DNA of 64,000 bases from Escherichia coli (GCF_003334385.1 NZ_QOWN01000010.1), one strand, 5' to 3'. Shown: positions 7,472 to 26,045, counted from the stretch's first letter. Translations and numbers: made by a program. Notes: generated by a model from the sequence alone, not told the origin.

Positions 7472-7496
7472 AAAAAAGCCCGCTTTTAATGCGGGC
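7472..7496 (-). terminator. Hairpin GCCCGC-N7-GCGGGC with a U6 tract on the minus strand; likely 3' end of the aspC transcript
   Basis: Plus strand reads AAAAAA GCCCGC TTTTAAT GCGGGC; a U-tract follows the stem only when read on the minus strand. Confidence 0.45.
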
Positions 7497-7526
7497 CTGG
7501 ATTTCTGGCAAAGTGCGCTTTGTTTA

Positions 7527-7627
7527 TGCCGGATGCGGCACGAGCGCCTTATCCGGCCTACAAAATCGTGCAAATTCAAAATATTGCAGGGGACGCGTAG
7601 GCCTGATAAGCGTAGCGCATCAGGCAA
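7527..7627. repeat. REP/BIME cluster (two inverted REP-like palindromic units)
   Basis: GCCGGATGCGG...CTTATCCGGCCTAC and GTAGGCCTGATAAGCGTAGCGCATCAGGC, in opposite orientation, in the ycbL-aspC intergenic region. Confidence 0.75.
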
Positions 7628-7649
7628 TGTTGCGTTTGTCATCAGTCTC

Positions 7650-7680
7650 AGCCCGCTTTTCAGCGGGCTTCATTGTTTTT
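7650..7680 (+). terminator. Hairpin AGCCCGC-N6-GCGGGCT followed by a T-rich run on the plus strand; likely 3' end of the ycbL transcript
   Basis: Stem 7650-7656/7663-7669 followed by TCATTGTTTTT; no U-tract in the minus orientation. Confidence 0.45.
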
Positions 7681-7685
7681 AATGC

Positions 7686-8876
7686 TTACAGCACTGCCAC
7701 AATCGCTTCGCACAGCGGAGCCATGTTATCTGGTGTCATCCCGGCCACATTTACGCGACCAGAAGCAACCGCATATACGCCAAACTCTTCGCGCAGACGC
7801 AGCACTTGTTCTTTTGTCAGGCCACTGAAGGAGAACATGCCGTTCTGTTTGATGATAAAGCTGAAGTCGCGGTTTGCGCCTTTTTCCTGCAGCGTATTGA
7901 CGAACAACTGACGCATACGCTGAATACGCTGGCGCATATCAGTCAGCTCTTGTTCCCAAATCGCACGTAACGCATCGTTGCTCAGGATGGTGGCAACAAC
8001 AGAAGCGCCGTGTGCTGGTGGGTTAGAGTAGTTAGCGCGAATCGCCGCTTTCATTTGGCTGAATGCGCGATCAACGGTTTCACTGTCGGCAGCAACCAGA
8101 GTACAAGCGCCAACACGCTCGTTGTACAGGCCAAAGTTTTTAGAGTAGGAACTGGCAACAATCAGCTCTTTATGCATAGCCGCGAAAGCGCGCAGTCCTT
8201 CAGCATCTTCTTCCAGACCACGGGCAAAACCCTGGTAAGCGAAGTCAAACAGCGGTAACCAGCCTTTCTCAACGGAGAGTTGTGCCAGTGTTTGCCATTG
8301 TTCCAGCGTAGGGTCGATACCGGTTGGGTTATGGCAGCAGCCATGGAACAGCACTACGTCGCCAGCCTGAGCTTCATTCAGGCTGTTAATCAGTGCATCG
8401 AAGTCAAGAGTGTGATTTTCCGCATCATAATAAGCGTATTCACGAACTTCCAGACCTGCAGAGTTAAAGACGCTCTTATGGTTCGGCCAGCTTGGGTTGC
8501 TCACCCACACACGCTTAACGCTGGTATTTTTTGCCAGGAAATCGGCAGCCACGCGTAGTGCGCCAGTGCCCCCCGGAGTCTGTGCCGTGCGAGCACGTTT
8601 GTCATTGATCAGGGCGCTACCTTTACCAAACAGCAGTTCCTGAGTGCAGCGACCAAATTCAGGGATGCCGTCAATGCCGAGGTAATTTTTGGTGGTTTCA
8701 TTTTCGAGCAGATACTGTTCAGCCTTTTTCACGCTGGTCAGTACCGGGGTTTTGCCCGTCTCATCTTTATAGACACCAATCCCGAGGTTAATTTTGCCGG
8801 GACGTTCATCGGCACGAAACAGATCGGCCAGGCCCAGAATCGGGTCGGCAGGAGCGGCGGTAATGTTCTCAAACAT
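7686..8876 (-). CDS. aspC: Aspartate aminotransferase AspC, 396 aa
   Basis: ORF 396 aa beginning [16 protein letters not shown]; PLP-lysine region SYSKNFGLY. Confidence 0.97.
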
Positions 8877-9005
8877 GACGAGGTTCCATTATGGTTACAG
8901 AAGGGAAGTCCGCTATCAGGGTAACGGGAGATTTACAAAATTCCAACTATTACTGATGAAAACGCAGGCTGTTTTTGCAAGACGTGAGATTGCTCTGGAA
9001 GGTAT

Positions 9006-9036
9006 AAAAAAAACAGGACCAAAGTCCTGTTTTTTC
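9006..9036. terminator. Bidirectional rho-independent terminator (3' end of ompF)
   Basis: A8 - CAGGAC CAAA GTCCTG - T6; the stem is flanked by A-run and T-run, so it is functional in both orientations. Confidence 0.7.
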
Positions 9037-9060
9037 GGCATTTAACAAAGAGGTGTGCTA

Positions 9061-10149
9061 TTAGAACTGGTAAACGATACCCACAGCAACGGTGTCGTCT
9101 GAACCTACGCCCAGTTTGTTGTCAGAATCGATCTGGTTGATGATGTAGTCAACATAGGTGGACATGTTTTTGTTGAAGTAGTAGGTTGCGCCCACTTCAA
9201 AGTAGTTCACCAGATCAACATCACCGATACCTTCTACGTCTTTCGCTTTAGATTTGGTGTAAGCGATGGACGGACGCAGACCGAAATCGAACTGGTATTG
9301 CGCAACTAACAGAACGTCTTGCGTTTTGTTGGCGAAGCCGCTGGTGTTTGTAAATTTATTAGTGATCGGCGTAGCGTTACGGGTTTCACCGTAGTTCGCT
9401 GCCAGGTAGATGTTGTTCGCGTCGTACTTCAGACCAGTAGCCCACTGTTCAGCTTTTTTACCGTTGCCAAGAGGTTGAGCTTCTTGCAGGTTGGTACGGT
9501 CAGCTGCACCATAAGCACCAACGATACCAAAGCCTTCGTATTCGTAGCTGATAGAACCGCCAACACCGTCGCCGTTAGAACGGCGTGCAGTGTCACGCTC
9601 GTTTTTACCCAGGTACTGAACAGCGAAGTTCAGGCCATCAACCAGACCAAAGAAGTTGGAGTTACGATAGGTAGCAACGCCGCCAACACGACCAACGAAG
9701 AAGTCATCGCTGTATGCAGTATCACCACCAAATTCTGGCAGCATATCGGTGTAACCCAGTGCATCATAAACCACACCGTAGTTACGGCCGTAATCGAAAG
9801 AACCAACGTCAGCGTATTTAAGACCCGCGAATGCCAGACGCGTTTTGTTACCAGTTTGAGCGTCAGCGCCTTCAGAGTTGTTACCCTGGAAGTTATATTC
9901 CCACTGACCATAACCGGTCAGATCGGAATTGATTTGAGTTTCCCCTTTAAAACCAAGACGGGCATAGGTCATGTCGCCATTGCCACCGTAACTGTTTTCA
10001 CCGTTACCCTTGGAAAAATAATGCAGACCAACAGCTTTACCGTACAGATCTACTTTGTTGCCATCTTTGTTATAGATTTCTGCAGCGTTTGCAGTACCTG
10101 CTACTAACAGAGCAGGGACGATCACTGCCAGAATATTGCGCTTCATCAT
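9061..10149 (-). CDS. ompF: Outer membrane porin F (OmpF), 362 aa
   Basis: ORF 362 aa beginning [22 protein letters not shown] and ending in the C-terminal aromatic ...VGIVYQF. Confidence 0.97.
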
Positions 10150-10254
10150 TATTTATTACCCTCATGGTTTTTTTTATGACACCTGCCACTGCCGTCAATA
10201 AGTTCTGTCAATAAAAATTTACGGAACTATTGATGAGAGTTTGGTGTCTTTATG

Positions 10255-10360
10255 TGTCTGCAGGCATCTTTCCATTCAAACTAACGTTTCGCTACCGTGA
10301 AAGTGCTACAAAGATAAAGATTTGGTTTCAAAAAGAAAAAATATGTAACCAAAAGTAAAA
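10255..10360 (-). promoter_or_regulatory. ompF promoter with tandem OmpR-binding sites F1-F3
   Basis: Minus strand reads TTTACTTTTGGTTACATATT ... TTTCTTTTTGAAACCAAATC ... TTTATCTTTGTAGCACTTTCAC, the recalled OmpR F1-F3 array, about 110-210 bp upstream of the ompF ATG. Confidence 0.75.
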
Positions 10361-10709
10361 TTTAAGGAACTTTGTGAACACCGTCATATTTCCATAGAGA
10401 CGTGATGATATTTACAGCAATTTTAATCTATTTATATGATTTCCTTATATTTAAATTAACTAAACGGAAATTTTGTTTCTGATGGAAACTTTATCGACCT
10501 GGCACAAAATCTTCTTTCAGACATCCAGAATGCCAAAAAATAGTATGAAAATTGTGCTATTAGCTAAGAAAAAACTAATCCGCAATAAGAATGCGGATTA
10601 GTTTTTGCGCGTAAATGTTGCAATGTAATATTCCGTAACAGGATGATCGTTATGGCGGGGTTGCAAATAGATTGCTTGACTTAACAAACAGATAACTTGA
10701 CAGAAAAGA

Positions 10710-10739
10710 TAAAAAAAGAGCCAGCGGGCGCTGGCTCTT
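10710..10739 (-). terminator. Rho-independent terminator after asnS
   Basis: Stem AGAGCCAGCG/CGCTGGCTCT followed by a T7 run on the minus strand, immediately after the asnS stop. Confidence 0.7.
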
Positions 10740-10751
10740 GAAGACGCTAAA

Positions 10752-12152
10752 TTAGAAGCTGGCGTTACGCGGAGTACGTGGGAACGGAATCACATCACGT
10801 ACGTTTTGCACGCCAGTTACGTAAGCAATCAGACGTTCAAAACCAAGACCGAAACCTGAATGCGGAACAGTACCGTAGCGACGCAGATCGCGATACCACC
10901 AGTAATCTTCTTTATTCAGGCCCATTTCCAGCATACGCTCGTCCAGCACGTCCAGACGTTCTTCACGCTGGGAGCCACCAATGATCTCACCGATGCCCGG
11001 AGCCAGAACGTCCATAGCCGCAACGGTTTTACCGTCTTCGTTAAGGCGCATATAGAACGCTTTAATATCTTTCGGATAGTTTTTAACCACTACCGGTGCT
11101 TTAAAGTGTTCTTCCGCCAGATAACGCTCATGCTCAGAAGAGAGATCGACTCCCCAGTAAACCGGGTTTTCAAACTTCCTGCCGCAGTTTTCGAGAATGG
11201 TCACTGCGTCGGTATAATCCACCTGCGCAAAATCGGCTTCAATGAAGCGTTCCAGACGTGAAACGGCATCTTTATCTACGCGTTCAGCGAAGAATTTCAT
11301 GTCGTCAGCGCGTTCTTCGAGAACCGCTTTGAAGACATATTTCAGCATGGCTTCAGCCAGACCCGCAATATCGTTCAGGTTAGCAAACGCCACTTCCGGC
11401 TCCAGCATCCAGAATTCCGCCAGGTGACGGCTGGTGTTGGAGTTTTCAGCACGGAAAGTCGGGCCGAAGGTATAAATTTTGGACAATGCGCAAGCGTAGG
11501 TTTCGCCGTTCAACTGGCCAGATACGGTCAGGAAAGACTCTTTACCAAAGAAGTCTTTGTCGAAATCCACTTTGCCCTGATCGTTACGCGGCAGGTTTTC
11601 CAGATCCAGCGTAGAAACGCGGAACATTTCGCCTGCACCTTCGGTATCAGATGCGGTAATCAGTGGCGTTGAAACCCAGAAGAATCCCTGCTCGTTAAAG
11701 AAGCGATGCAGCGCCTGCGCCAGCGTATGGCGAACGCGCGCGACGGCACCAATCAGGTTTGTGCGCGGACGCAGGTGAGCGACTTCACGCAGATACTCAA
11801 TGCTGTGGCGTTTTGCCGCCATCGGGTAAGTGTCTGGATCTTCAACCCAACCAGCAACTTCAACCTTGCTGGCCTGAATTTCAAATTGTTGCCCCTGGCC
11901 CGGCGACGCCACGACTTTACCCGTCACAATGACCGAGCAGCCGGTGGTCAGACGCAGGACGTCTTCATTGTAATTGGGCAGAGAATTATTGATGACAGCC
12001 TGTACAGGATCAAAGCAGGAACCGTCATAAACGGCGAGGAAGGAGATGCCAGCTTTTGAATCTCGGCGGGTACGTACCCATCCGCGCACGGTGACTTCGC
12101 TGTCAACGGCTACACGGCCCTGGAGTACGTCGGCTACAGGCACAACGCTCAT
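10752..12152 (-). CDS. asnS: Asparagine--tRNA ligase AsnS, 466 aa
   Basis: ORF 10752..12197; start chosen at [13 protein letters not shown] (CAT at 12150-12152), giving the recalled 466 aa; class II aaRS motifs. Confidence 0.95.
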
Positions 12153-12286
12153 AATATTCTCTCTGTTAATAGTCGGAAAAAATAAACACTTGTCCACCCG
12201 TAAATGGGGGGATACCTATGTTACCTGGCATCTGCAATCAGACAAGCAGAATTCGCAAATGCAGCGAAAGATTTCGGAATTAAAGG

Positions 12287-12312
12287 TAAAAAAAGGGAGC
12301 CGATTAGCTCCC
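12287..12312 (-). terminator. Rho-independent terminator after pncB
   Basis: Stem GGGAGC/GCTCCC followed by a T-run on the minus strand, just past the pncB stop. Confidence 0.6.
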
Positions 12313-12320
12313 TGATGATA

Positions 12321-13523
12321 TTAACTGGCTTTTTTAATATGCGGAAGGTCGAACGCTTTGCGCAGCGCCCGAACAAACGCTTTATCATGGCAGATAGTTT
12401 TGCCAGGGCTGTCAGAAAGTTTCGCCACCGGTTTACCGTTACACTCTACCAACTTAATGACAATATTCAGGGGTTTTACCTGGGGGATATCGCAGGTCAG
12501 GCGAGTCCCAATACCAAAACTTAATTGCACGCGGGAAGAGAAGTGGCGGTATAGCTCAACCGCTTTGCGTAAATCCAGATTGTCAGAGAAAACCAGCGTT
12601 TTACTCTGTGGATCAATTCCCAGCTTTTCATAATGTGCAATGGCTTTTTCACCCCATTCAACCGGGTCGCCAGAGTCATGACGCAGGCCCTGATACCGAC
12701 TAGCGAACTCGACACCGAAATCACGCAGGAAAGCATCCATAGTGATGCAGTCGGTTAATGCAATGCCAAGTTGGTCGGGATACTCTTCCAGCCAGGCAGC
12801 AAGTGCAGCTCGCTGGCTGTTGGCTAGATCCGGGCTGATTTGCTGATGTGCCTGGAACCATTCGTGTGCCTGTGTTCCCATCGGCGTGAGGGAAAGCCGA
12901 CGCGCCAGATCGTAGTTGCTGGTGCCCACAAACCAGGATTCCTGTTGCAGACGCTTAACGATGGTTTCTTGTACTTCGCGAGAAAAACGGCGACGGGTGC
13001 CAAAATCCATCAGATGGAAGCGCGACATATCAAGACCGGCGGTTAACGCCGAGAAGTCGACTAATTTGCTTTCCAGCGTGTCGAGGGCTTGCGCAACGTC
13101 GGCCTGCGGTGAGCGATAGCGATGTACCATTTCACTGATAACCGCCAGCAAAGGAACTTCCCAGAGGATGACTTCACGCCACGGGCCGCTTAAACGAATA
13201 TCCAGCTTGCCATTATCGTTGGACACGGTGACTTGTTCCGGGTTAAAGCGGAACTCGCGTAACCAGTTAAGATAGTCGGCCTTAAAGAAAGGCAGGGCAG
13301 AAAGCCACTGATATTCATCATCCTGCAGGCGCAGGTGCTGCATCGCCTGAACCTGTTCACGAATAGCATCGGCATAAATACCCAGCAGATCGTCACCTCG
13401 GCAACGAAACTCCGCCGCGACATGCACATCGTAATAGTGATGAAACACGGCTTGCTGCATATGCAACTTATAAGCATCTGTATCCAGCAACGAGTGCAGA
13501 ACAGGAGAAGCGAATTGTGTCAT
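12321..13523 (-). CDS. pncB: Nicotinate phosphoribosyltransferase PncB, 400 aa
   Basis: ORF 12321..13571; start chosen at [24 protein letters not shown] (CAT at 13521-13523). Confidence 0.94.
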
Positions 13524-13552
13524 AGGTGCGCAGTAGCGTCCTCGTACAGGAG

Positions 13553-13570
13553 CGTTTAGTACAATAAACA
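13553..13570 (-). promoter_or_regulatory. Putative NadR operator in the pncB leader (TGTTTA-N6-TAAACG)
   Basis: Minus strand reads TGTTTATTGTACTAAACG, 30-47 nt upstream of the pncB ATG; resembles the NAD-box inverted repeat. Confidence 0.35.
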
Positions 13571-13788
13571 TCTTCAGGAACTGCTGGAGTATACCTTGTT
13601 TCGCAATTTATTGAACCCCGATCACACCATATGCCACCTTTCTGGTCGATGGCATTACGCGGTGTATGTTATAAAAATGTAGCAATAAAGGCGTTTGTAC
13701 CTGAAAAGATGAAGATTCTGCATAGCGCGATTTACGCAACAGGAATAGACTGAACACCAGACTCTATAAAAGATGCTAAAGGTTATTT

Positions 13789-16401
13789 ATGACTCAACAG
13801 CCACAAGCCAAATACCGTCACGATTATCGTGCGCCGGATTACCAGATTACTGATATTGACTTGACCTTTGACCTCGACGCGCAAAAGACGGTCGTTACCG
13901 CGGTCAGCCAGGCTGTCCGTCATGGTGCATCAGATGCTCCCCTTCGTCTCAACGGCGAAGACCTCAAACTGGTTTCTGTTCATATTAATGATGAGCCGTG
14001 GACCGCCTGGAAAGAAGAAGAGGGCGCACTGGTTATCAGTAATTTGCCGGAGCGTTTTACGCTTAAGATCATTAATGAAATAAGCCCGGCGGCGAATACC
14101 GCGCTGGAAGGGCTTTATCAGTCAGGCGATGCGCTTTGCACCCAGTGTGAAGCCGAAGGTTTCCGCCATATTACGTATTATCTCGACCGCCCGGACGTGC
14201 TGGCGCGTTTTACCACCAAAATTATTGCCGATAAAATCAAATATCCCTTCCTGCTTTCCAATGGTAACCGCGTTGCGCAAGGCGAACTGGAAAACGGACG
14301 CCATTGGGTACAGTGGCAGGACCCGTTCCCGAAACCGTGCTACCTGTTTGCGCTGGTGGCAGGCGACTTTGATGTACTGCGCGATACCTTTACCACGCGT
14401 TCTGGTCGCGAAGTAGCACTGGAGCTGTACGTCGATCGCGGCAACCTTGATCGCGCGCCGTGGGCGATGACCTCGCTGAAAAACTCCATGAAATGGGATG
14501 AAGAACGCTTTGGCCTGGAGTATGACCTCGACATCTATATGATCGTCGCGGTGGATTTCTTCAATATGGGCGCAATGGAGAATAAGGGGCTGAATATCTT
14601 TAACTCCAAATATGTGCTGGCCCGCACCGACACCGCCACCGACAAAGATTACCTCGATATTGAACGCGTTATCGGCCATGAATATTTCCATAACTGGACC
14701 GGTAACCGAGTGACCTGTCGCGACTGGTTCCAGCTCAGCCTGAAAGAAGGTTTAACCGTCTTCCGCGATCAGGAGTTCAGCTCTGACCTTGGTTCCCGCG
14801 CAGTTAACCGCATCAATAATGTACGCACCATGCGCGGATTGCAGTTTGCAGAAGACGCCAGCCCGATGGCGCACCCGATCCGCCCGGATATGGTCATTGA
14901 GATGAACAACTTCTACACCCTGACCGTTTACGAGAAGGGCGCGGAAGTGATTCGCATGATCCACACCCTGCTTGGCGAAGAAAACTTCCAGAAAGGGATG
15001 CAGCTTTATTTCGAGCGTCATGATGGTAGTGCAGCGACCTGTGACGACTTTGTGCAGGCGATGGAAGATGCGTCGAATGTCGATCTCTCCCATTTCCGCC
15101 GTTGGTACAGCCAGTCCGGTACACCGATTGTGACCGTCAAAGACGACTACAATCCGGAAACCGAGCAGTACACCCTGACCATCAGCCAGCGCACGCCAGC
15201 CACGCCGGATCAGGCAGAAAAACAGCCGCTGCATATTCCGTTTGCCATCGAACTGTATGATAACGAAGGCAAAGTGATCCCGTTGCAGAAAGGCGGTCAT
15301 CCGGTGAATTCCGTGCTGAACGTCACTCAGGCGGAACAGACCTTTGTCTTTGATAATGTCTACTTCCAGCCGGTGCCTGCGCTGCTGTGCGAATTCTCTG
15401 CGCCAGTGAAACTGGAATATAAGTGGAGCGATCAGCAACTGACCTTCCTGATGCGTCATGCGCGTAATGATTTCTCCCGCTGGGATGCGGCGCAAAGTTT
15501 GCTGGCAACCTACATCAAGCTGAACGTCGCGCGTCATCAGCAAGGTCAGCCGCTGTCTCTGCCGGTGCATGTGGCTGATGCTTTCCGCGCGGTACTGCTT
15601 GATGAGAAGATTGATCCAGCGCTGGCGGCAGAAATCCTGACGCTGCCTTCTGTCAATGAAATGGCTGAATTGTTCGATATCATCGACCCGATTGCTATTG
15701 CCGAAGTACGCGAAGCACTCACTCGTACTCTGGCGACTGAACTGGCGGATGAGCTACTGGCTATTTACAACGCGAATTACCAGAGCGAGTACCGTGTTGA
15801 GCATGAAGATATTGCAAAACGCACTCTGCGTAATGCCTGCCTGCGTTTCCTCGCTTTTGGTGAAACGCATCTGGCTGATGTGCTGGTGAGCAAGCAGTTC
15901 CACGAAGCAAACAATATGACTGATGCGCTGGCGGCGCTTTCTGCGGCGGTTGCCGCACAGCTGCCTTGCCGTGACGCGCTGATGCAGGAGTACGACGACA
16001 AGTGGCATCAGAACGGTCTGGTGATGGATAAATGGTTTATCCTGCAAGCCACCAGCCCGGCGGCGAATGTGCTGGAGACGGTGCGCGGCCTGTTGCAGCA
16101 TCGCTCATTTACCATGAGCAACCCGAACCGTATTCGTTCGTTGATTGGCGCGTTTGCGGGCAGCAATCCGGCAGCGTTCCATGCCGAAGATGGCAGCGGT
16201 TACCTGTTCCTGGTGGAAATGCTTACCGACCTCAACAGCCGTAACCCGCAGGTGGCTTCACGTCTGATTGAACCGCTGATTCGCCTGAAACGTTACGATG
16301 CCAAACGTCAGGAGAAAATGCGCGCGGCGCTGGAACAGTTGAAAGGGCTGGAAAATCTCTCTGGCGATCTGTACGAGAAGATAACTAAAGCACTGGCTTG
16401 A
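13789..16401 (+). CDS. pepN: Aminopeptidase N (PepN), 870 aa
   Basis: ORF 870 aa; HEYFHNWTGN zinc motif and GAMEN motif. Confidence 0.97.
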   Translation: MTQQPQAKYRHDYRAPDYQITDIDLTFDLDAQKTVVTAVSQAVRHGASDAPLRLNGEDLKLVSVHINDEPWTAWKEEEGALVISNLPERFTLKIINEISPAANTALEGLYQSGDALCTQCEAEGFRHITYYLDRPDVLARFTTKIIADKIKYPFLLSNGNRVAQGELENGRHWVQWQDPFPKPCYLFALVAGDFDVLRDTFTTRSGREVALELYVDRGNLDRAPWAMTSLKNSMKWDEERFGLEYDLDIYMIVAVDFFNMGAMENKGLNIFNSKYVLARTDTATDKDYLDIERVIGHEYFHNWTGNRVTCRDWFQLSLKEGLTVFRDQEFSSDLGSRAVNRINNVRTMRGLQFAEDASPMAHPIRPDMVIEMNNFYTLTVYEKGAEVIRMIHTLLGEENFQKGMQLYFERHDGSAATCDDFVQAMEDASNVDLSHFRRWYSQSGTPIVTVKDDYNPETEQYTLTISQRTPATPDQAEKQPLHIPFAIELYDNEGKVIPLQKGGHPVNSVLNVTQAEQTFVFDNVYFQPVPALLCEFSAPVKLEYKWSDQQLTFLMRHARNDFSRWDAAQSLLATYIKLNVARHQQGQPLSLPVHVADAFRAVLLDEKIDPALAAEILTLPSVNEMAELFDIIDPIAIAEVREALTRTLATELADELLAIYNANYQSEYRVEHEDIAKRTLRNACLRFLAFGETHLADVLVSKQFHEANNMTDALAALSAAVAAQLPCRDALMQEYDDKWHQNGLVMDKWFILQATSPAANVLETVRGLLQHRSFTMSNPNRIRSLIGAFAGSNPAAFHAEDGSGYLFLVEMLTDLNSRNPQVASRLIEPLIRLKRYDAKRQEKMRAALEQLKGLENLSGDLYEKITKALA

Positions 16402-16408
16402 TAAATAA

Positions 16409-16438
16409 CCGAATGGCGGCAATAGCGCCGCCATTCGG
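16409..16438. terminator. Hairpin between convergent pepN and ssuB
   Basis: Stem CCGAATGGCGGC/GCCGCCATTCGG; no clear U-tract on either side. Confidence 0.4.
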
Positions 16439-16443
16439 GGAAT

Positions 16444-17211
16444 TTACCCCTGTTTTCTCAGGCGAGTTTCAGATTCACCACGTTGCATCACCCGTTGCAA
16501 CACCTCCGCTTCCAGCTCCGCTAATCGCACCGACCCTAATCGACGCGGACGGGGGATATCCACTGTCAAATCCAGACCAATTTTTCCCTCTTCAATTAAC
16601 AGCACCCGGTCAGCCATCGCTACCGCTTCGCTCACATCATGCGTCACCAACAGTACGGTAAAGCCGTGCTCCTGCCAAAGTGACACAATCAAATCCTGCA
16701 TCTCGAGTCGCGTTAAGGCGTCCAGCGCCCCGAGCGGTTCATCAAGCAACAATAATCCCGGTCGATGAATCAACGCTCTTGCCAGCGCCACTCGCTGTTT
16801 CTGCCCGCCAGAAAGTGCGGCAGGCCATTCCCCTGCGCGATTCTCCAGTCCTACCGCAGCCAACGCTCGACGTGCGGCATCGCGCCACTGGCCTTTAAGG
16901 CCTAACCCAACGTTATCAATCACCGATTTCCACGGTAGCAGACGCGCATCCTGAAACATCATTCGCGTGTCTTCCTGAATTTCAGCCAGCGGTGTGGTGC
17001 CCGCTAACACATCGCCTGCGGTTGGCGTTTCCAGACCTGCCAGCAGGCGCAGCAGGGTACTTTTGCCACCACCGCTGCGGCCCACCACCGCCACAAACTG
17101 ACCTGCCGGAATATGTAAATCCAGTTGGTTCAGGACGATATTTTCCGCGTAATGTTTGCTTACTGCATTGAGCAACAATGGCGTGCCCTGGTTCAGACGA
17201 GCAGTATTCAT
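16444..17211 (-). CDS. ssuB: Aliphatic sulfonate ABC transporter ATP-binding protein SsuB, 255 aa
   Basis: ORF 255 aa; Walker [13 protein letters not shown] signature LSGGQKQRV, Walker B LLLDEP. Confidence 0.95.
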
Positions 17212-17999
17212 ACCGTGGCCTCCTTCAAATGATAAGCCGGGTTCCAGCGCAACCAGAGGCGCTCTAACAGCTGCGCGCTGACGTCAGCCAGTTTGCCGAG
17301 CAGGGCGTAAAGAATAATAGCGACTACCACCACGTCCGTTTGCAAAAACTCCCGCGCATTCATCGCCAGATAACCAATGCCTGAATTGGCAGAAATGGTT
17401 TCGGCAACAATCAGCGTCAGCCACATCAGGCCCAACGCAAAACGCACGCCGACCATAATTGAGGGCAGGGCACCAGGCAGGATCACATGGATAAACAGCG
17501 GTATGCCGGATAATCCATAGCTACGCGCCATCTCCACCAACCCGCGATCGATATTACGGATGCCATGCCAGGTGTTGATATAAATGGGGAATAGCGTACC
17601 GAGCGCCACCAGAAAGATTTTTGCGGATTCATCAATGCCAAACCACAAAATCACCAGCGGGATCAGCGCCAGATGCGGCACGTTGCGCAACATCTGAATT
17701 GAGGTATCCAGCAGCCGTTCTCCCCAGCGAGATAGCCCGCTAATCAGTCCCAAAATCAACCCCAGCGATCCGCCAATTGAAAAGCCAATCAGCGCCCGCC
17801 AGGAGCTGATCGCCAGATGCTGCCACAGTTCGCCGCTGGCGGAGAGCGTCCAGAACGCCGTCACCACTCCTTCCGGTGAAGGCAAAATACGCGTCGACAG
17901 CCAGCCAACCGAGGAGGCCAGTTGCCACACCGCCACGATGCCCACCGGTAAAAACCAGGGGGCAACGCGCAATAACCACTTCTTCACTGGCGTTGCCAT
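17208..17999 (-). CDS. ssuC: Aliphatic sulfonate ABC transporter permease SsuC, 263 aa
   Basis: ORF 17208..18044; start chosen at [10 protein letters not shown] (CAT at 17997-17999); 4-nt overlap with ssuB. Confidence 0.92.
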
Positions 18000-18009
18000 T
18001 ATTTCTTCC

Positions 18010-19155
18010 TTAGCTTTGCGCGACTTTACGGGGGATAAAATCATTCGCCACCGCTTCGCCTTGCGGATTCAGCGGCTGCGGCTGGGGAATTTCCGGGATG
18101 GCGACATCCAGAAGCGGGAACAGCAACTCGCCAACCCGATACGCTTCTTCCAGATGCGGATAGCCCGAAAGCACAAAACTGTCGATGCCAAGCGCGGCAT
18201 ATTCGTTGATTCGCGCAGCGACCGTAGGACCATCGCCCACCAGCGCCGTCCCGGCACCGCCGCGCACTAAGCCAACGCCCGCCCATAAATTGGGGCTGAT
18301 CTCCAGATTGTCGCGCTTGCCGTTATGTAACGCCGCCATTCGCTGTTGCCCTACGGAATCCGTCCGGGCGAATGCGGCCTGTGCTTTGGCGATAGTTTCA
18401 TCATCAAGATGCGAGATTAACCGCTCGGCGGCCTGCCACGCTTCGTCGTTAGTTTCACGAACAATCACATGCAGACGAATACCGAAACGAATTTTGCGTC
18501 CATGCGCGGCAGCTTTCGCCCGCACTTGTTCGATTTTCTCTTTAACCAGTTCCGGCGGTTCGCCCCAGGTGAGGTAGAGATCAACCTGTTCTGCCGCCAG
18601 CTCCTGGGCGACATCTGACGATCCGCCAAAGTAAAGTGGCGGATACGGCTGTTGAATCGCCGGGAAGAGCAGTTTTGCTCCGCGCACATGAATATGTTTA
18701 CCGTTGAAATCGACGGTTTCTCTCTGCAATAAACGCCGCCAGACCTGGGTAAATTCCGCCGAGGCTTCGTAGCGCTCGCTATGATCAAGGAACACTCCGT
18801 CGCCTGCCAGCTCTTGTGGATCGCTGCCTGTGACCAGGTTAAACAACGCACGTCCATTTGAGAGACGGTCAAGCGTGGCGGCCTGGCGGGCGGCAACGGT
18901 AGGTGAGGTTACGCTGGGACGCAGGGCGACAAGAAACTTCAGCCGCTGCGTCACCGGGATCATCGATGCGGCAACCAGCCACGCATCTTCGCAGGAGCGC
19001 CCCGTTGGAATTAGCACACCGGTATAGCCAAGACGATCCGCCGCTTGCGCAATTTGTTGCAGATAACCGTGATCAACCGGGCGTGAACCTTCTTCCGTTC
19101 CCAGATAATGCCCGTCACCGTGGGTCGGTAAAAACCAGAACATATTCAGACTCAT
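18010..19155 (-). CDS. ssuD: FMNH2-dependent alkanesulfonate monooxygenase SsuD, 381 aa
   Basis: ORF 381 aa beginning [19 protein letters not shown]. Confidence 0.96.
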
Positions 19156-20111
19156 AATTGTTTTCCTTCCAGTTGAGTGGGCTGCCAGATGCGCTGGCGA
19201 ATATCGACTTTTTTCGGCACCAGACGATTTTCATAAAACAGATCTGCCGTTTGCTGCTGTAAGGCGGCAACCTCGGCGTTAACCGGTTTGATGGTGGTAG
19301 GAGGGCGATGATCTAAGTAAGAGGCAATCACCGGTGCCGGTAAGCCCATCGTTTTTGCCAGTAAAGCGATGCTTTGCTCGCGCTGGCTGCGGGTTAACGC
19401 ATCGGCCTCACTAAAGGTTGCCAGTACGCCCTGAATAAAAGCGCCGTTTTTTTCTGCATAGGGACGAGCTGCCAGATAAAACGATCCAGTTTGATTGAGA
19501 TCGGTGCCGTCTTTCAGCACCCGCACGCCGCCCTGTAATAATGCAGCAGAGTAGTAGGGATCCCAGATAGCCTAGGCGTCAACGTTACCTTGCTGGAACG
19601 CGGCGCGGGCATCAGCGGGCGTCAGGTAAGTGGGTTGGATATCGGTAAACTTAAGTCCGGCCTGACGCAGTGCACGCAGTAAAAGGTTGTGTGAACTGGA
19701 ACCTTTCTGAAAGGCAACTTTGTGACCTTTAAGATCGGCTACGGTTTTGATCGGGCTGTTTTCTGCCACCAGAATCACTTCGGCTTTGGGCTTCGGTGGC
19801 TCGACGCCCACGTACACCAAATCAGCCCCGGCAGCCTGGGCAAAGATTGGCGGAATATCCCCGGTACTGCCGAGATCAATACTGCCAACGTTTAACGCTT
19901 CCAACATTTGCGGACCCGCGGGGAACTCCACCCAGGAGATTTTTGATTCCGGATAGCGTTTTTCCAGTAACTGGTGGCTTTTTGCCAGCACCATACCAAT
20001 ACTGCCTTTCTGATAGCCTATACGTAACGCTTCAGGCGAGGATTCTGCAGCAACCGCAAAAGTAGAGACGCTAAGCAATCCCGCCAGCGCCAGTTTAATG
20101 ATGTTACGCAT
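19152..20111 (-). pseudogene. ssuA: ssuA (sulfonate-binding periplasmic protein) interrupted by an in-frame TAG at 19572-19574
   Basis: ORFs 19572..20153 and 19152..19526 share one frame; reading reads ...QQGNVDA * AIWDPYYSAALLQGGVRVLKDG..., where I recall Trp in the intact protein; the span is 320 codons, as expected for 319 aa. Confidence 0.8.
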
Positions 20112-20679
20112 GGGCATTACCTCGCAGAGACAGAAGGTCAGGAACCTGAACATCGCGGCGGTGCAATGCCTGCCAGAAAGTTTCTAGCGCGGTATCAAGA
20201 CGGGTTTGCAGATTTGGCGTGAACTGGGGTCTGTGATGGTAATCAATTACTTGTGAGTCATCGGCAAACACGCCGTGCAGGATCTCCTGAGCTTTCAGTG
20301 CGCTTAAAACTGGTTTAAGGGCATAATCGACCGCCAGCAGATGGGCCACGGTACCGCCCGTCGCCAGCGGTAGCACCACTTTGCCTTGCAAAGCGCGTTC
20401 TGGCAGCAGGTCGAGCAGGGTTTTCAACGCACCGGAATAGGCGGCTTTATACACAGGCGTGGCGACAATCAGCCCATCGGCCTGTTGCAGCTGTTCGGTG
20501 AAGGTCTTGAGTGCCGGACTATCGAAACGAGCATAAAGTAGATCTTCCGGGGCGAAGTTTTGCAGATTCCAGTGATAAACCTCTACATCCAGGCCATTTA
20601 GTTTTTCCCGCGCATATTCCAGCAAGGAGCTGGAGCGAGAAGGAAAGCGAGGACTACCCGCCAGGGTGATGACACGCAT
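20104..20679 (-). CDS. ssuE: NADPH-dependent FMN reductase SsuE, 191 aa
   Basis: ORF 191 aa beginning MRVITLAGSPRFPSRS; 8-nt overlap with the ssuA start. Confidence 0.95.
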   Translation of the reverse strand: MRVITLAGSPRFPSRSSSLLEYAREKLNGLDVEVYHWNLQNFAPEDLLYARFDSPALKTFTEQLQQADGLIVATPVYKAAYSGALKTLLDLLPERALQGKVVLPLATGGTVAHLLAVDYALKPVLSALKAQEILHGVFADDSQVIDYHHRPQFTPNLQTRLDTALETFWQALHRRDVQVPDLLSLRGNAHA

Positions 20680-21035
20680 ACTCTCTCCTTATAACCAATT
20701 GTTCTTTTTTTTGTTAACATTGATAACAATTCGGTCAGTCTGTCGGAGAGACAAGAAAATTCCAAATATAAATTTTGTGTATCTTTTTCTGAAAATAAAC
20801 TAAAGAAAGGGCTTTATATATCACGCATATTTATTTATTGGATAGTCATTAGATGTTGAATCAATGAATTACTCGTTCAGTTAATATTTAAATATTCATG
20901 AAATCTATAAATTAAAGATTTGTCACTTATTGGATTTAGTATGCTTGATTTAAATGGCGGACAATTATTGTTATTATTAAGTCTAATGTCATTTAAAGGC
21001 ATTATCATATTTACGAAGAGATCAGGATGATAACG
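20680..21035. promoter_or_regulatory. AT-rich divergent control region between ssuE and elfA
   Basis: About 350 bp of strongly AT-rich DNA with A/T tracts, between the ssuE start and the elfA start. Confidence 0.5.
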
Positions 21036-21657: not shown

Positions 21658-22359
21658 ATGAAAACTTGCATAACAAAGGGAATTGTGACCGTAAGTTTAA
21701 CGGCAATATTACTCAGCTGCTCATCCGCATGGGCGGCAGGTAAAGGCGGGATTGGACTTGCAGCAACACGTCTTGTTTATTCAGAAGGTGAAGAGCAAAT
21801 TTCACTGGGTGTACGTAACACCAGTCTGGATGTTCCTTATCTTATTCAGTCATGGGTGATGACCCCAGATAATAAAAAATCAGCAGACTTTATTATTACA
21901 CCACCGCTATTTGTGCTGAATCCGGCAAATGAGAATCTGTTACGCATTATGTACATTGGAGCGCCGTTGGCGAAAGACAGAGAAACCCTTTTCTTCACTA
22001 GCGTACGGGCAGTCCCTTCAACAACGAAGCGGAAAGAGGGAAATACCCTGAAGATTGCCACACAAAGCGTCATCAAACTTTTCTGGCGACCAAAAGGTTT
22101 AGCGTATCCCTTAGGCGAGGCTCCGGCGAAACTGCGTTGCACTTCGTCAGCTGACATGGTTACGGTCAGTAACCCAACACCTTATTTCATTACCCTGACA
22201 GACCTGAAAATAGGTGGAAAAGTAGTTAAAAATCAAATGATTTCCCCCTTTGATAAATACCAATTTTCTCTGCCAAAGGGGGCCAAAAATAGCAGCGTAA
22301 CGTATCGAACCATCAATGACTACGGGGCGGAAACGCCGCAACTCAACTGTAAATCGTAA
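21658..22359 (+). CDS. elfD: Periplasmic fimbrial chaperone ElfD (YcbR), 233 aa
   Basis: ORF 233 aa; PapD-like chaperone sequence. Confidence 0.93.
   Translation: MKTCITKGIVTVSLTAILLSCSSAWAAGKGGIGLAATRLVYSEGEEQISLGVRNTSLDVPYLIQSWVMTPDNKKSADFIITPPLFVLNPANENLLRIMYIGAPLAKDRETLFFTSVRAVPSTTKRKEGNTLKIATQSVIKLFWRPKGLAYPLGEAPAKLRCTSSADMVTVSNPTPYFITLTDLKIGGKVVKNQMISPFDKYQFSLPKGAKNSSVTYRTINDYGAETPQLNCKS

Positions 22360-22383: not shown

Positions 22384-26045
<3,662 letters not shown>

Follow-up and report, generated by a model that had tools for sequence, protein, structure and literature searches.

The ssuEADCB operon and the interrupted ssuA gene

The window (the whole stretch of DNA that we analyzed, 64 kb of Escherichia coli sequence running from mukB to appA) carries the ssuEADCB operon on the minus strand. 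The first gene of the operon is ssuE (20104..20679), encoding an NADPH-dependent FMN reductase; it is followed by ssuA (19152..20111), encoding the periplasmic binding protein of the aliphatic sulfonate ABC transporter, ssuD (18010..19155), encoding the FMNH2-dependent alkanesulfonate monooxygenase, and ssuC (17208..17999) and ssuB (16444..17211), encoding the ABC permease and the ABC ATPase, respectively. The role of the operon has been described previously (PMC6906117; PMC3839906). The order of the cluster and its junctions, with ssuA sitting between ssuE and ssuD, are as in K-12: ssuE and ssuA overlap by 8 nt, ssuA and ssuD by 4 nt (ATGA), and ssuC and ssuB by 4 nt, and a gap of 10 nt lies between ssuD and ssuC. 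A preliminary description of this DNA, made from the sequence alone, had called ssuE, ssuD, ssuC, and ssuB intact, and all four indeed match the K-12 sequences exactly; for ssuD, ssuC, and ssuB, this follows from the comparison of the window with K-12, which shows no difference in the interval 7494-19572.

The ssuA frame is split by a premature amber codon (TAG, codon 180; 19572..19574, minus strand). Translation of 19152-20111 on the minus strand gives 320 codons: 179 sense codons, the TAG (19574..19572), another 139 sense codons, and a TGA. The N-terminal fragment (19575..20111, minus strand; 179 codons) holds the signal peptide and about half of the mature protein, and the remainder of the frame past the stop (19152..19571, minus strand) consists of 139 codons and the TGA, which overlaps the ssuD start (ATGA). 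The residues on the two sides of the stop are ...QQGNVDA and AIWDPYYSAALLQGG..., so that the split into 179 and 139 codons reported in the preliminary description agrees with the translation in both coordinates and flanking residues.

Comparison with ssuA of K-12 MG1655 revealed a single different base, at gene position 539, and no indel, in line with the 320-codon span noted earlier. The plus strand has a T at 19573 in the window and a C in K-12 MG1655, changing codon 180 from TGG (Trp) to TAG; all other bases of the gene are as in K-12, and the proposal of one G-to-A transition, as read on the coding strand, is therefore borne out. The tryptophan that had been expected at this position is present in K-12 SsuA and in the solved structure (PDB 2X26), and with W180 restored, SsuA residues 25-319 match PDB 2X26 with an E-value of 3e-195. 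We mapped 55 complete K-12 genes onto the window, and ssuA is the only one among them with an internal stop. With a premature in-frame stop in a frame that is otherwise conserved and free of indels, ssuA in the window is a nonsense pseudogene; we refer to the allele as W180*.

The W180* allele in related genomes and metagenomes

Over its 64 kb, the window is about 99.97% identical to MG1655, from which it differs by 19 SNPs and one poly-T indel. Ten of the SNPs are non-synonymous (including the nonsense change), six are synonymous, and three are intergenic. Their even spread and near-neutral ratio had raised the suspicion of a mutagenised K-12 derivative; we rejected this idea, since 13 of the 19 also occur in one or both of two other genomes, H3 and SCU-104.

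These two genomes were identified by searching for the allele itself. Among 5,426 complete genomes of E. coli, only two contain the exact 61-mer centered on the stop: H3 (from human faeces, Mexico) and SCU-104 (from a healthy student, California), the latter a phylogroup A strain of ST8125 (PMC11251922). In another 4,830 complete genomes, the 61-mer is matched with one to three mismatches (95-99% identity), and the top matches among them, with one mismatch, are annotated with an intact ssuA. H3 is also the only one of the 5,417 complete genomes bearing ssuA in which the gene is identical to that of the window. PGAP annotates ssuA as a pseudogene in both genomes: with an "internal stop" in H3 (NZ_CP028732.1, AOY60_RS08545), and as "frameshifted; internal stop" in SCU-104 (NZ_CP053284.1, HHJ22_RS08495). 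SCU-104 has an extra 1-bp deletion past the stop, at a position equivalent to 19447 in the window, and the same deletion is present in an independent, Illumina-based metagenome contig (L011).

The window, H3, and SCU-104 have eight SNPs (the amber among them) and one indel in common relative to K-12 over the 64 kb. Five additional SNPs (at 2498, 27781, 36459, 42042, and 45696) are common to the window and SCU-104, and six (at 21827, 31650, 33990, 44124, 48557, and 54881) are private to the window with respect to H3 and SCU-104, each of which carries private SNPs as well. The SNPs are thus nested as ((window, SCU-104), H3), with K-12 outside, indicating that the three descend from an ancestor that already carried the amber codon, and ruling out a base-call error. 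A check for the stop in related genomes, which had been suggested with the preliminary description, therefore cuts both ways: the stop is real, but it did not arise newly in this isolate, since related genomes already carry it and are annotated by PGAP as having an ssuA pseudogene.

The allele is also found well beyond complete genomes. The exact 179-residue product was found on 196 contigs and in 324 index blocks; the sources are isolates at NCBI, gut metagenomes of ENA and JGI, and Logan assemblies. We fetched nine of the contigs with this product (L010-L018): all of them have the TAG, none has the window's SNP at 21827, and the clade marker at 25041 is present in at least eight (L010-L017). 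W180* thus belongs to a widespread natural lineage, of which the window is one further member. Members of the W180* clade have diverged by about 2.5-3.3 x 10^-4 per site; assuming typical short-term substitution rates for E. coli and no recombination, the allele would, very roughly, have persisted for centuries. A literature search on ssuA pseudogenes found no description of the W180* allele.

Taken together, our preferred reading, to which we give a probability of roughly 0.85, is that W180* is a natural, vertically inherited allele that defines a K-12-like clade of phylogroup A, that it likely arose by deamination at a Dcm site, and that functional SsuA would have been lost with it.

A former Dcm site at codon 180

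The mutated base lies in what is a Dcm site in K-12 (19572..19576; CCTGG on the coding strand and CCAGG on the plus strand, at ssuA gene positions 536-540), which reads CCTAG on the coding strand in the window. The plus-strand context is tagccCaggcg in K-12 and tagccTaggcg in the window, so that the change is a C>T at the inner (second) C of CCAGG, which is the base methylated by Dcm. CCWGG sites are known as hotspots of G:C>A:T changes at the methylated base (PMC13250602; PMC10710837), and PMC10333322 cites Cherry 2018 (J Bacteriol, doi 10.1128/JB.00371-18) on methylation-induced hypermutation in natural bacterial populations. In such a scenario, the inner C of the plus-strand (non-coding) CCAGG, methylated to 5-methylcytosine, would deaminate spontaneously to T, and this C>T change would appear on the coding strand as G>A, turning TGG into TAG. 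Both dcm and vsr, which lie outside of the window, are intact in H3, a member of the clade.

There are exactly three Dcm sites in ssuA, and a methyl-C>T change at each of them makes an amber codon (W60*, Q92*, and W180*). The other two sites are intact in the window: CCTGG over Trp60 (TGG; 19932..19936) and CCAGG over Gln92 (CAG; 19835..19839), each one deamination away from the amber. For 21 positions in ssuA at which a transition can create a nonsense codon, we counted the contigs with exactly the truncated product that a K-12-type gene would give. The products were found in 54 contigs for W60*, 47 for Q92*, and 196 for W180*, whereas the 18 other positions average 10.3 contigs (median, 7.5); these are counts of contigs, which mix independent origins with clonal expansion, and most of the W180* contigs come from one clade. 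The three Dcm-site products rank 1st, 3rd, and 4th among the 21 (permutation p = 4/1330 = 0.003; p = 0.021 when W180 is excluded). The control that ranks 2nd, Q193* (61 contigs), is represented mostly by contigs whose ends fall at gene positions 576-578 rather than by true stops; since this artefact inflates the control counts, the permutation test is conservative. The TAG at the predicted base was confirmed in long contigs from isolates and metagenomes, at five loci for W60* (L028-L032) and four loci for Q92* (L033-L036). Deamination of 5-methylcytosine at the Dcm site is most likely the origin of W180*, with the caveat that a G>A transition of ordinary origin would be indistinguishable from it.

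Recurrence in other ssuA backgrounds and alternative explanations

A TAG at codon 180 is also seen in ssuA alleles outside of the K-12-like clade. It occurs in the ssuA type of Shigella boydii ATCC 9905, which differs from that of K-12 at 51 positions (the SNPs nearest to the stop are 8 bp away on the upstream side and 25 bp away on the downstream side), in two S. flexneri-type alleles, and in one divergent allele from a metagenome. We count at least two ssuA backgrounds with this TAG, and probably four to five. A swine isolate has the S. boydii-type 61-bp flank around codon 180, but with TGG. All four combinations of alleles at ssuA sites 531 and 539 are found, which must be due to recurrent mutation or else to a conversion tract of less than 33 bp.

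Other lesions were found in and around codon 180. In S. flexneri L022, codon 180 is TGA instead of TAG. Apart from the two adjacent bases of this codon, ssuA of L022 is the same as in L023, which carries the TAG, and the two loci differ at four sites in 6.5 kb. The TGA in L022, for which the outer C has changed, is beyond the Dcm mechanism. Products ending at a W183* stop occur in both S. flexneri and K-12 backgrounds, and S. boydii has a second lesion in the operon, with ssuC out of frame. The TGA and W183* together leave some room for selection favouring the loss of ssuA in Shigella and gut E. coli, an effect that is not separable here from chance. An extended form of this idea would be that ssuA is primed for inactivation by its three Dcm sites, each one step from an amber, and that positive selection may have favoured its loss convergently in Shigella and in E. 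coli of the human gut. Hints in this direction come from the TAG in several backgrounds, the TGA at the same codon, the nearby W183*, and the K-12-type W180* clade, which has persisted and spread globally; we regard this idea as doubtful.

The same observations bear on the alternative that survives best, although we still consider it unlikely: that W180* is a random G>A transition unrelated to Dcm, fixed by drift or by selection against SsuA, and that its recurrence reflects selection or the small number of codons, those for Trp among them, that are one step from a stop. The TGA at codon 180 of L022, in a sequence nearly identical to that of a TAG carrier, and the W183* product in two backgrounds would fit such a scenario, and so would the general tendency of Shigella to gather pseudogenes, of which the out-of-frame ssuC of S. 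boydii is another example. It is at odds, however, with the base that changed, which is exactly the methylated C, and with the finding that all three Dcm sites in ssuA give ambers, at ranks (1st, 3rd, and 4th of 21; p = 0.003) interrupted only by a product that is mostly an artefact.

Much less probable is that the stop is read through or suppressed (by a tRNA encoded elsewhere, or because UAG-G is leaky), such that functional full-length SsuA is made. In its favour, the frame past the stop is intact in the window, as are the other ssu genes; but a sub-lineage of carriers has a further frameshift downstream, and constraint on this part of the frame is not upheld across carriers (SCU-104 and L011 both have the 1-bp deletion there). 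The tRNAs that we checked are normal: the sole tRNA in the window is a tRNA-Ser(UGA), and serU of H3 has the regular CGA anticodon (glnV, tyrT, and leuX lie outside of the window). Basal readthrough of UAG in E. coli is also low.

Of the possibilities listed in the preliminary description, the natural nonsense allele stands, whereas a base-call error and a deliberately placed amber fall, given that wild genomes carry the stop along with linked SNPs. A base-call or assembly error at 19573 has nothing specific in its favour beyond the fact that a single-base substitution is a possible type of error, and it has next to no probability when the base is shared, together with linked SNPs, by two independent complete genomes and many isolate and metagenome assemblies. 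An amber that was deliberately placed or selected in the laboratory (for instance to test suppressors, to expand the genetic code, or as part of a recoded chassis) would sit well with a background about 99.97% identical to K-12 and with the AvrII site (CCTAGG) that the change creates, but we dismiss it just as firmly, as the carriers are natural isolates (human faeces from Mexico; California) and gut metagenomes, the window has 19 SNPs relative to every K-12 record, many of them common to wild strains, natural TAG terminators are kept in ycbX and mepK (so the strain is not a TAG-free chassis), and there is no suppressor tRNA within the window.

Predicted consequences for SsuA and the downstream genes

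The product of the W180* allele ends at residue 179 of 319, corresponding to residue 155 of 295 in the mature protein, and roughly the C-terminal half is missing. With translation halting after residue 179, a functional periplasmic sulfonate-binding protein would not be made, delivery of substrate to SsuBC would be lost, and non-taurine aliphatic sulfonates are predicted not to support the strain as a source of sulfur. Two in-frame GTG codons past the stop (codons 196 and 198) are preceded by a weak Shine-Dalgarno-like sequence, and gene callers give a 124-residue ORF there; this fragment has no signal peptide and would not restore function. The 1-bp deletion past the stop in the SCU-104/L011 sub-lineage is consistent with a loss of function, and would be expected if the downstream part of the frame is dispensable.

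The preliminary description had confined the loss to substrate binding, which is probably too narrow a view, because ribosomes would stop 417 nt before ssuD, so that coupling would be gone and polarity would become possible. The stretch between the stop and the overlapping ssuD start (417 nt) is untranslated, and this would abolish translational coupling between ssuA and ssuD. In addition, Rho-dependent polarity may lower the expression of ssuD, ssuC, and ssuB, and a lower expression of these three genes is plausible. The untranslated tail of the mRNA contains a candidate Rho loading region (19232..19371, minus strand), proposed from its C-rich and G-poor composition: in 80-nt windows over gene positions 741-880, the C content is 0.34-0.35 and the G content 0.19-0.21, with a C/G ratio of 1.65-1.87, compared to about 1.0 elsewhere. 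As a Rho loader, this C-rich stretch is only suggestive.

Implications for annotation

For annotation, import of non-taurine alkanesulfonates should be scored as absent from the lineage, and the two ORFs into which ssuA is split (179 and 124 residues) should be merged into one pseudogene instead of being counted as two genes. Splitting of this kind is one reason why ssuA, which is listed among the "extended-core" loci (PMC12595684), can leave the strict core genome in pan-genome analyses. W180* is a fresh example of a known phenomenon: the pseudogene had already been flagged by PGAP in two RefSeq genomes, and the mutation belongs to a textbook class of hotspots. The gene shows the Dcm hotspot compactly in nature, as all three of its CCWGG sites have given ambers that circulate in the wild. 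The ssuA ambers may be of use in teaching, or as a small test case for mutation-bias models; they raise no new question.

Comparison with known systems

The closest relatives of the allele are the ssuA pseudogenes of H3 and SCU-104, which have the same W180* TAG and have clade SNPs in common with the window. The gene is identical in H3, whereas SCU-104 differs from the window by its additional 1-bp deletion, and the window differs from both genomes by its six private SNPs. The nonsense alleles of ssuA in Shigella (S. boydii ATCC 9905, EFW56899.1, and the 179-residue products of S. flexneri) also have their stop at codon 180, several of them as a TAG at the same base; their backgrounds differ (by 8 to 51 differences), which points to an independent origin.

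The codon-33 amber of rpoS, rpoS(Am), is a polymorphism in K-12 lineages. Like ssuA W180*, this amber is natural and segregates among E. coli strains that are close relatives; unlike W180*, it affects a different gene, with regulatory consequences.

As for the mutation itself, Coulondre, Miller, Farabaugh, and Gilbert reportedly located amber hotspots of lacI at CCAGG sites in 1978. In both lacI and ssuA W180*, the change is a C>T at the inner, Dcm-methylated C of CCWGG, and an amber codon is made. The lacI mutations are CAG>TAG changes on the coding strand, obtained under laboratory selection, whereas for ssuA W180* the methylated C belongs to the non-coding strand, and wild lineages carry the allele as a fixed polymorphism; it is Q92* in ssuA that is the exact CAG>TAG analogue of the lacI hotspots. 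Cherry is also said to have described, in 2018, an excess of C>T polymorphism at Dcm sites in natural E. coli. The recurrent ambers in ssuA fit this pattern, although it was drawn from genome-wide statistics, and here we deal with one gene and its three Dcm sites.

Substitutions private to the window

Compared with K-12, H3, and SCU-104 (the latter two being complete E. coli genomes that carry the same ssuA amber codon), the window has six SNPs of its own, at positions 21827, 31650, 33990, 44124, 48557, and 54881. There is no synonymous change among them: four are non-synonymous (elfD P57L, rlmKL D213E, uup A287T, and helD F307V), one falls in the intergenic region between sxy and sulA, and the last is at position -1 of the 5′ end of serT, which encodes tRNA-Ser(UGA). 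The change at 21827 was absent from all nine related contigs that we fetched.

Variation in the ssu operon and in related genomes

A poly-T run on the plus strand at 20705, in the ssuE leader/promoter region about 26 nt 5′ of the ssuE start codon (20679), is longer by one T in the window, H3, and SCU-104 than in the MG1655 record. At the neighbouring position 20712, several other contigs of the amber clade do not match the window; the length of this tract is therefore variable. The ssuC ORF called mechanically in the window (17208-18044) begins at an upstream ATG and has 278 residues; the start annotated in K-12 corresponds to 17999, which gives 263 residues and leaves a gap of 10 nt behind ssuD.

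A second ssuA lesion, a 1-bp deletion equivalent to position 19447 of the window, is found in SCU-104 and in the metagenome contig L011. This deletion of the SCU-104/L011 sub-lineage is real, because it occurs alike in a long-read complete genome and in an Illumina metagenome assembly. The fimbrial gene elfG is frameshifted in SCU-104 (equivalent to 25372 of the window); in L011 it is called as two ORFs, with the difference a few bases from the SCU-104 frameshift position. In H3, torZ and dgcQ (outside the window) are further pseudogenes annotated by PGAP with an internal stop.

Many short contigs from Logan, ENA, and JGI (L038-L041) end at positions 576-578 of the ssuA gene, and therefore yield a spurious "192-residue" SsuA product that imitates Q193*, one of the control nonsense positions. 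These ends look like a recurrent break in the assembly graph, about 38 bp 3′ of the polymorphic codon 180.

Comparison with Shigella

Two S. flexneri loci that differ at only four sites across 6.5 kb have different stops at codon 180 of ssuA, TGA in L022 and TAG in L023; no single-step path connects TAG and TGA. The W183* product (P0004) is also present in an S. flexneri background. In the S. boydii ATCC 9905 type (L019/L020), ssuA carries the amber codon and, in addition, ssuC is not in frame when read from the K-12 start; the ORF called there has 242 residues rather than 263. The S. boydii operon thus has at least two lesions, against a single one in the lineage of the window.
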